2,543 nucleotides of DNA, taken from NCBI RefSeq assembly GCF_024298765.1, contig NZ_CP101218.1; one strand, 5' to 3'. Below are positions 1-1,307 of this stretch, piece by piece. Under the pieces are notes generated by a model. The model was not told where the DNA came from. It saw only the letters and a program-made list of their open reading frames with translations, and searched no databases. The stretch is from Escherichia coli. GTDB taxonomy: Bacteria > Pseudomonadota > Gammaproteobacteria > Enterobacterales > Enterobacteriaceae. Made by a program: the position numbers and the translations under genes. Position 1 is the stretch's first letter; every line of letters starts with the position of its first letter.

Positions 1-133
1 TGTCGAAAAGTTGCAGCGGAAAATGGGACAGGATGTGTATTCGTCATACCGCGAATACATTCGCTTGCATGAGAATACCTCCTGTCAGGGCAAGCCCCGA
101 CACCCCAAACGTGCAAAATGGAGAGTCATTGCG
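1..133 (+). promoter_or_regulatory. Leader region upstream of mobC; candidate operator or oriT-like (bom-like) region
   Basis: Seen in sequence: 14-bp palindrome GCGAAT-ac-ATTCGC (51-64), GAATAC direct repeat (53-58, 73-78), 9-bp palindrome CCTGTCAGG (81-89), and the 12-mer GCCCCGACACCC (94-105), which I recall as also present in the pBR322/ColE1 bom region. SD-like GGAGAG (119-124) lies 9 nt before the ATG at 134. The same frame is open back to position 2, so this region could instead be coding. Confidence 0.25.
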
Positions 134-559
134 ATGACTAAAAATAAACGTAGTGGTTCAGAAGTACGGCAGAGAACTAAGGTTATCACCCTTAGAGTAA
201 ATAACAGAGTCGCAAGCGAAATCAGACGGCGAGCGAAGAACGAAGGACTGACAATTTCAGAATATATCAGGACGGCAAGTTTAAATAATGAAATAAAACA
301 GCGCGTACCTTCCAGGTATTTAGATGAATTAATCCGACTTGGTCGGATGCAGAAGAAATTATTTGATAAGGGAAAGCGGCCGAAGGATAAGGAGTACCTC
401 GAGGTGATGCATAAAATAATTTTACTTTGCGATGAAATGAAAATAGTAACGAAGCGAATTTCTGATGTATATAATGAAATGGATTTAATAAAGGATGAAA
501 TAAAAATAATAAAAAGGATACATAAAGATAAATATCCAGGTTCGGATTTATTCAAATAA
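134..559 (+). CDS. mobC: Ribbon-helix-helix DNA-binding protein, MobC/MbeC-like plasmid mobilization accessory protein (141 aa). The frame is open to the window start, so alternative starts at ATG 23, TTG 11 or off-window cannot be excluded.
   Basis: ORF track frame 11..559. ATG at 134 is preceded by GGAGAG with a 9-nt spacer. The N-terminal basic tail followed by RTKVITLRVNNRVASEIRRRAKNEGLTISEYIRTASLN fits the RHH beta-strand/helix/helix pattern (R-x-I-x-L-R-V ... G-L-T-I-S-E-Y-I-R) typical of MobC-type relaxosome accessory proteins; the C-terminal half is charged and helical. TAA stop at 557-559. Confidence 0.6.
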   Translation: MTKNKRSGSEVRQRTKVITLRVNNRVASEIRRRAKNEGLTISEYIRTASLNNEIKQRVPSRYLDELIRLGRMQKKLFDKGKRPKDKEYLEVMHKIILLCDEMKIVTKRISDVYNEMDLIKDEIKIIKRIHKDKYPGSDLFK

Positions 560-755: not shown

Positions 756-1307
756 TTAACTAGATTTATCCTCTTGTTTTTCAATTGTATTTTTTCTCTC
801 AATCACAGTTGTAAACGCGATTCTGTCACCATTAAAAACAAAGTTAGGGTTAATGAAATACCTTCCTTGTCGCATTGTTTTTGCAATTATTTTCGCTTTT
901 TCCAATTCATTAAGACCTCGCTTAAAGGTTGCAAGACTTAGTCGTAATGGTTGTTTACTCGCAGAAACTTGGCACTGAAGAAACGCTTCTAAAACTAAGG
1001 TATCCAAATCAACTTCGTCTTTTGAGAGTGCAGAGTTCTGAACGGACCAAACTAAAACACCGAAGGCTTTAATTCCCGCAGAAGATAGCTCAAAAGTTAA
1101 GCCAATATTTGCTGTAAAAAGTTTTACAAACTGTTCGCTATCAACACGTTTATATGTTGTTACGTGAGTACCTTGAACCTCACCTGTGTTCTGATTGACC
1201 AGGATGTTATCATCACGACCTAGACGCGAAAGCCTAACTTGCTTCCCCTTGACAGGTACAACCATTCCTTCTAAAAATGGGTTTTCTTTATAGCGACCGA
1301 AGCTCAT
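756..1307 (-). CDS. repL: Plasmid replication initiator, RepL family (winged-helix DNA-binding), 183 aa
   Basis: ORF track 756..1307 (-). ATG at 1305-1307 on the minus strand is preceded by AGGGGTG (SD-like) with about a 5-nt spacer. The protein carries motifs I recognise from RepL of staphylococcal pSN2-type plasmids and phage P1 RepL: NTGEV near the N-terminus, a central FVKLF...GL segment, and a C-terminal LNELEKAKIIAK...YFINPNFVFNGDRI (compare LKILEEGNIIKRK...LMLNPELLMRGDD). Family assignment is from memory, not a search. Confidence 0.8.
   Translation of the reverse strand: MSFGRYKENPFLEGMVVPVKGKQVRLSRLGRDDNILVNQNTGEVQGTHVTTYKRVDSEQFVKLFTANIGLTFELSSAGIKAFGVLVWSVQNSALSKDEVDLDTLVLEAFLQCQVSASKQPLRLSLATFKRGLNELEKAKIIAKTMRQGRYFINPNFVFNGDRIAFTTVIERKNTIEKQEDKSS

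Follow-up and report, generated by a model that had tools for sequence, protein, structure and literature searches.

A probable R64-type transfer origin beside a private nikA gene on a small Col(MG828) plasmid of Escherichia coli that carries no relaxase gene

Positions 25-106 of the window (the whole 2,543-base stretch of Escherichia coli DNA that was analyzed) very probably make up an 82-bp transfer origin (oriT) of the R64/I-complex type (MOBP, NikA/NikB), located directly upstream of a nikA-like gene. In all likelihood this oriT is a functional one, on a 2.5-kb RepL plasmid that has its own NikA and no relaxase, and the plasmid is probably mobilizable in trans by a large I-complex plasmid. 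The original prediction had placed a possible oriT, resembling the ColE1 bom region, upstream of an RHH gene. The oriT has held up, but the ColE1 bom type has not: the type is that of R64 and the I complex, and ColE1 shares the distal box only.

BLAST against PLSDB identifies the window as a small plasmid of E. coli with a Col(MG828) replicon. In relatives such as AP026524 and OW967010, position 2543 is joined straight to position 1 or 2, so the window closes into a full circle, on which the left edge is an arbitrary point. Two genes are recognizable, one for a 141-aa RHH protein (134-559, plus strand) and one for a RepL-family replication protein (756-1307, minus strand). No relaxase ORF or domain was found across the 2,543 bp by inspection of ORFs and profile search, and none of the remaining ORFs, including those of the GC-rich stretch 1500-2100 searched for a hidden relaxase, has a Pfam match. 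A scan of the whole window against Rfam at E <= 1 returned no RNA family. The Col(MG828)/RepL family records examined are labeled non-mobilizable by MOB-suite. Among 5,426 complete E. coli genomes, 45 have the same oriT type, in every case on a plasmid of 2.2-3.9 kb and in many cases from poultry; at least two of the host strains also harbor an IncK2/Z plasmid, an anecdotal count matched by strain name.

Elsewhere on the plasmid, the AT-rich 400 bp at 2144-2543, on the leading side of the predicted nick, are 99.75-100% identical to 2.3-kb relatives, whereas the repL segment (730-2143) is replaced or far more diverged in them. A perfect 12-nt inverted repeat (2203-2214/2371-2382) lies inside these 400 bp, which have no Rfam match. 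Nested repeats, both inverted and direct, closely precede the repL start (1307, minus strand) at 1352-1411; they read GGTAGCTCAA and TTGAGCTAC(C/G)GTAG, have a third copy at 1498-1509, and are probably a RepL operator or origin iterons. A piece at 1513-1573, distinct from the oriT box, matches ColE1 (NC_001371, 1307-1367, minus orientation) with 81% identity across 62 nt and E = 4e-9. Its ColE1 counterpart lies between oriV and bom, in the region of a PriA-dependent primosome assembly (n') site, and the piece suggests a single-strand initiation signal in a RepL plasmid. Between the convergent nikA and repL genes, a hairpin at 561-592, with a 14-bp stem and flanking runs of T and A, has the look of a bidirectional terminator; relatives also contain it as an inverted copy.

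The nick region of the predicted oriT occupies positions 25-37 on the minus strand. On the T strand it reads 5'-CACATCCTG/TCCC-3', the slash marking the predicted nick between 29 and 28. When the region was checked for a relaxase nic motif, as had been proposed with the original prediction, a 13-mer identical to that of R64, I-gamma and K2/Z was found here, CACATCCTGTCCC (37-25, minus strand), and it is the sole match in the window. In multiple alignments, the nick region GGGACAGGATGTG (window 25-37) also appears in R64, I-gamma and K2/Z. The conserved I-complex nick motif, ACATCCTG/T on the transferred strand, is present in the window, and the nick region is invariant in seven members of the Col(MG828) family. 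A nick at 29/28 is what homology with R64 predicts, and the exact R64 nick was reportedly given by Furuya and Komano in 1991. For pCTX-M3, the nick region has been given as ACATCTTGT, by similarity to R64 (PMC7440800).

The main inverted repeat begins 8 nt from the predicted nick, the same spacing as in R64. The title of a 1997 paper by Furuya and Komano, cited in PMC4743918, states that a precise location of the NikA-site repeat is required. The nick-proximal arm, GTATTCGTCAT (37-47), is the equivalent of R64 repeat A, as judged from the fold and from pairing in relatives, and is where the plasmid's own NikA is predicted to bind. The distal arm, ATGAGAATAC (69-78), corresponds in the same way, by fold and pairing, to R64 repeat B. 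Between the arms, the apex hairpin GCGAAT-AC-ATTCGC (51-64) forms an inner 5-bp stem of the long stem-loop; it has no counterpart sequence in other oriT types, in which the apex is variable. The outer stem partner, CTCCTGTC (79-86), pairs with nick region 27-35 (27-36 and 77-86 are 90% complementary), so the nick sits within the base of the long folded hairpin. The palindrome CCTG-T-CAGG (81-89) is where this outer stem (CCTGTC with GACAGG of the nick region) overlaps the distal repeat. The CCTG/CAGG pairing is predicted in the four I-complex/pCERC7-type oriTs that were folded, and a similar outer stem is seen in the Klebsiella oriT. Both palindromes had been located correctly in the original prediction, as a direct reading of the letters bears out for the second. 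By themselves, the two could occur by chance in a sequence of 2.5 kb; both are parts of the larger hairpin structure, whose nick region (25-37) and main inverted repeat (37-47/69-78) were absent from the original list.

The distal conserved box, CCTGTCAGGGCAAGCCCCGACACCCC (81-106), contains the 12-mer GCCCCGACACCC (94-105) and an imperfect 8-bp inverted repeat, GTCAGGGC / GCCCCGAC (84-91/94-101). The spacer of this repeat is 2 nt in the window versus 3 nt in every other type compared, and the repeat folds as an 8-bp hairpin in all other oriT types. With this second short repeat, the box completes the minimal oriT of roughly 90 bp expected of the R64/I-complex type. The original prediction had traced the 12-mer to the ColE1 bom region, and correctly: it is found exactly in ColE1 (NC_001371, 1510-1521), 44 nt from the ColE1 nick region. 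There is one exact match, with 0.08 expected by chance at up to two mismatches, and the 12-mer is invariant in nine of nine aligned oriTs, ColE1 included. The box is said to have a role in transfer termination, according to work by Furuya and Komano in 2000. Taken as a whole, the T strand from 106 to 25 folds at -17.8 kcal/mol, compared with -9.3 +/- 2.2 for shuffled sequences (z = -3.9), and none of 200 shuffles folds as low.

A sensitive search with positions 1-133 matched about 800 plasmids. Window 20-106 is 74-78% identical to the I-gamma/K1 and K2/Z conjugative plasmids, in which the matching segment lies immediately upstream of nikA-nikB and in the same orientation. R64 aligns likewise, with its oriT upstream of nikA-nikB and oriented as in the window, and the overall identity between the window oriT and the I-complex oriTs is 70-79%. 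Similarity beyond the 12-mer, the check suggested at the outset, therefore extends over the whole 82-bp core in R64-type oriTs. Matches also occur in small relaxase-less plasmids, either with nikA (pCERC7-type) or without any mobilization gene. The eight I-complex-type oriTs compared consist of three modules, namely the nick region, a variable hairpin, and an invariant distal box. The consensus of the box is CTGGTCAGGGC-nnn-GCCCCGACACCCC, unchanged even in ColE1, and the 12-mer is its second half. The arms of the window differ in sequence from those of R64, IncK2, pCERC7-type, and Klebsiella oriTs, but each keeps a long hairpin at the same place.

The core is also conserved within the plasmid's own family. 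Compared with the CP120561 clade, the window has a nikA dS of about 1.0 and an 82-bp non-coding core that is 95% identical; across the family, the core is 95-100% identical where nikA dS is about 0.3-1.0. Part of this conservation could come from recent recombination rather than selection. The changes in the core include a compensatory C42T/G73A pair as well as C68T, which turns a G-T pair into an A-T pair, and the main repeat positions are paired throughout in six distinct family sequences. Read as pairing changes, C42T/G73A and C68T support the predicted long repeat 37-47/69-78 over local palindromes. The statistics of compensation are weak, since the pair arose in one evolutionary event and the score is reached in 34 of 500 shuffles. 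The comparison across oriT types is stronger because the arm sequences differ and yet the hairpin is always present.

The gene downstream is nikA/mobA (134-559, plus strand), identified by profiles and homologue alignment as encoding a 141-aa RHH relaxosome accessory protein. The original prediction had called it MobC/MbeC; the RHH accessory role was right, and the family is instead NikA/MobA. The protein scores 99.3 bits against the NCBIfam MobA model NF041264 (cut-off 80) and 61.3 against the Pfam NikA-like model PF21983 (cut-off 27). It is 50% identical to R64 NikA, 39-43% to I-gamma/K2 NikA, 42% to pCERC7-type NikA, and 18% to ColE1 MbeC. A Shine-Dalgarno-like GGAGAG (121-126, plus strand) stands 7 nt upstream of the nikA ATG and is weakly conserved, since GGAG becomes AGAG in a diverged clade of the family. 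The dN/dS ratio within the family is about 0.18, so nikA is a functional protein under purifying selection. NikA residues ~111-141 (window 464-556) are a K- and I-rich C-terminal extension of about 30 aa that includes DLIKDEIKIIKRIHKDKYPGSDLFK; it is conserved within the family and absent in R64, IncK2, pCERC7-type, and Klebsiella NikA.

Natural cointegrates bear on the use of the nick site. Two blaCMY-2 IncK2 conjugative plasmids, pTMSA992 (KR905387) and p5312.29 (KR905385), both from one study, each contain an entire Col(MG828) mini-plasmid at the IncK2 oriT, where it separates the leading region from nikA-nikB. A 2.3-kb fragment between yggA and nikA was recorded without explanation by the IncK2 authors (PMC5350095). 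That the events were independent is suggested by the inserts themselves, which are distinct variants with differing NikA proteins and with junctions 93.5% identical. At the left junction, both plasmids run from the IncK flank through GGGACAGGATGTG into the small-plasmid repeat, and at the right junction from the small-plasmid flank through GGACAGGATGTG into the IncK2 repeat and nikA. All four crossovers fall inside the shared 12-nt nick region GGACAGGATGTG. Such crossovers appear to be the signature of oriT-by-oriT recombination mediated by the NikB relaxase, because a cut at one oriT followed by rejoining to the other gives this product. R64 NikB is described as catalyzing oriT-specific recombination, stimulated by NikA, in work of Furuya and Komano (2003) as cited in PMC5714925. 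Microhomology-mediated recombination at the sole shared 12-mer could in principle give the same cointegrates. A search of PLSDB with the hybrid junction as query found no cointegrates besides the two IncK2 records.

The right-hand hybrid oriT of these plasmids (NZ_KR905387, 6436-6440; NZ_KR905385, 6600-6604) shows a further change at the base equivalent to G25, which is replaced by T in one plasmid and by A in the other. Counted 3' from the nick along the T strand, G25 is the fourth base; it is invariant in seven free mini-plasmids, and the pCERC7-type oriT naturally has A there. The change might stabilize the cointegrate.

How else could positions 1-133 be read? It is very improbable that they are coding, either as an N-terminal extension of NikA (from TTG11 or ATG23), which the original prediction had offered as its alternative, or as a small ORF (33-137) whose TGA overlaps the nikA ATG. 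The nikA frame is open to position 2, as had been noted, and on the circle back to 2491 (2491 to 559), while frame 3, open over 2477 to 137, terminates at the ATGA overlap. Of six relatives, however, five have an in-frame TAG at 14-16 and three have ACG in place of ATG23. Annotated homologues all start at the equivalent of 134, their N termini all align at M134, the profiles begin at residue 12 of 141, and the translated upstream stretches match no family; the extension was rejected. The 33-137 frame is open in R64 too, but there the translation of the aligned DNA is an unrelated peptide across the repeat region, and the observed changes keep DNA pairing and not amino acids. The small ORF was set aside as a by-product of conserved DNA. 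There is equally little probability in a ColE1-type bom/oriT nicked by an MbeA-type (MOBP5/HEN) relaxase, even though ColE1 has the exact 12-mer and the 23-nt box (84-105) 44 nt from its nick, and the RHH protein is distantly related to MbeC. Those 23 nt align at E = 0.6, with no similarity beyond them and only a weak hairpin, and the box is found equally in R64-type oriTs, which align over the entire core. The ColE1 nick sequence, GTATACTGG/CTTAAC, has no match in 1-133. The sole match with three mismatches, AAATATTGGCTTAAC to GTATACTGGCTTAAC, is at 1096-1110 (minus strand) in repL and is probably due to chance, 12 of 200 shuffles giving at least one such match. The protein is also much closer to R64 NikA than to MbeC, and the plasmid has no mbeA-type relaxase operon.

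A less improbable reading, though still an unlikely one, is that the region is the decayed relic of an oriT after the loss of nikB, left as a NikA operator or promoter only or with no function at all, on a plasmid that is truly non-mobilizable. The missing relaxase gene, the MOB-suite label, a main repeat shorter than in R64, and the shortened distal spacer would all suit a relic. On the other hand, a nick region of 13 nt that is invariant, a spacing of exactly 8 nt, a compensatory change, and 95% identity of the core where synonymous sites are saturated would not be retained in a relic. The cointegrates, moreover, indicate that the IncK2 relaxase used the nick site at least twice, and a relaxase-less plasmid with nikA and oriT, NTP16, has been mobilized by R64 in experiments (PMC9282650). 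As for a relic promoter, a scan for consensus sigma-70 sequences found no promoter near 1-133. The region may also be a nikA operator, which is compatible with the oriT reading. Slightly more probable than a relic, but still improbable, is that relaxase hijackers of a distinct, hitherto unrecognized lineage are to be seen in the Col(MG828)/RepL mini-plasmids. With its divergence and its unique C-terminal extension, their NikA would redirect the IncK/I-complex NikB to a private repeat, might compete with helper transfer, and would regularly form oriT cointegrates that travel in the conjugative plasmid; the change at position 25 could lock such cointegrates.

If positions 25-106 are a functional R64/I-complex-type oriT, which remains the favored reading, mobilization could proceed as follows. 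A dimer or tetramer of the plasmid's NikA would bind the nick-proximal arm (37-47) and bend the DNA. A co-resident I-complex plasmid (I1, I-gamma, B/O, K, or Z) would provide NikB in trans, and NikB would recognize the identical nick region, cleave the minus strand between 29 and 28, and stay on the 5' end. Contact with NikB might be made, speculatively, by the conserved C-terminal half of NikA (LxELxRLGRxQKxLF..GKR..DKEY). The minus strand would then be transferred 5' to 3', from 28 to 1 and from 2543 onward, through the type IV secretion system of the helper, so that nikA would enter last. The long hairpin (27-86) and the distal repeat (84-101) would re-form in the single strand, where NikB would recognize the incoming oriT and reseal the circle. 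Helper mobilization would depend on ACATCCTGT and would be expected to be lower with CGAACTAGT in its place. We propose that the plasmid has retained its own nikA because its repeat arms differ from those of the helper. These steps are modeled on homologous systems, and the cointegrates support only the action of an IncK2 relaxase at the nick site. Some caution is also in order, as the window NikA is just 41-50% identical to the NikA proteins of I-complex systems and the recruitment of a foreign NikB is presumed.

Few small-plasmid markers are commoner in E. coli than the Col(MG828) replicons. For example, they are reported to be present in 530 of 880 ST131 genomes, in which their role has been called unknown (PMC6949217). 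With an intact R64-type oriT and a private NikA, the Col(MG828) plasmids would be reclassified as mobilizable in trans by IncI-complex plasmids. The previously uninterpreted 2.3-kb insert of the blaCMY-2 IncK2 plasmids would find its explanation as an oriT-mediated cointegrate, and the distal box common to oriTs from ColE1 through R64 is a handy signature for finding others of this kind. That a plasmid without a relaxase can carry nikA and oriT is an established principle; the Col(MG828)/RepL family is set apart by the replicon (RepL), the NikA lineage, and the repeat arms. No paper on this oriT, or on mobilization of the family, was found when the literature was searched for Col(MG828) in combination with oriT or nikA.

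The likeness to known systems can be stated part by part. The 13-nt nick region is identical in R64 (IncI1) and in the I-complex plasmids I-gamma, B/O, K, and Z. R64 also shares the nick-to-repeat spacing of 8 nt, the 82-bp core, and the position and orientation upstream of nikA, and in R64 and the I complex, as in the window, a long hairpin precedes an imperfect 8-bp repeat that has the invariant GCCCCGACACCCC. The main repeat of the window is shorter than that of R64 (10 bp with one bulge versus 17 bp), and its arms are different. Unlike R64 and the I-complex plasmids, the window has no nikB after nikA, and its NikA, half identical to that of R64, has the C-terminal extension that theirs lack. 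The bom region of ColE1/pBR322 (MbeA-D) resembles the window in having the distal box CTGGGTCAGGGCnnnGCCCCGACACCC, 12-mer included, and in its RHH accessory protein, which belongs to the same superfamily. Its nick sequence and repeat differ, the box is 44 nt from the nick compared to 65 nt in the window, and ColE1 encodes its own relaxase operon, which the window plasmid does not.

Among small plasmids, the oriT-only "mimic" plasmids (pEC156, 2.5-kb Enterobacter plasmids, and a 1,976-bp ColpVC plasmid), like the window, have an R64-type oriT; they need the relaxase of a helper, and the pBuzz-like plasmids are oriT-only mimics as well. One of them, pEC156, has an R64-type oriT and is mobilized by R64 (PMC4743918). 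The mimics have no nikA and have arms near those of the helper, so they presumably rely on the helper's NikA, whereas the window has diverged arms and a NikA of its own. The small ColE1-like plasmids pCERC7, NTP16, and pU302S, reportedly described by Moran and Hall in 2017, are said to have a "pEC34A-type" oriT. This group has nikA and an R64-like oriT and no nikB, and NTP16 is the member mobilized by R64 (PMC9282650). The pCERC7-type NikA, WP_000166966.1, is 53% identical to R64 NikA, in agreement with the published figure (PMC9282650). Like the window, these plasmids thus pair an R64-like oriT with a private nikA and lack a relaxase. Their oriT is 76.5% identical to that of the window, with arms of about 20 bp compared to 8-10 bp, and they have a ColE1-type replicon with rop where the window has RepL/Col(MG828). 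One identical NikA protein is found across the pCERC7 group, and the window NikA is 42% identical to it. The window therefore has neither the same NikA nor the near-identical oriT by which that group is defined; the strategy is the same and the lineage is different.
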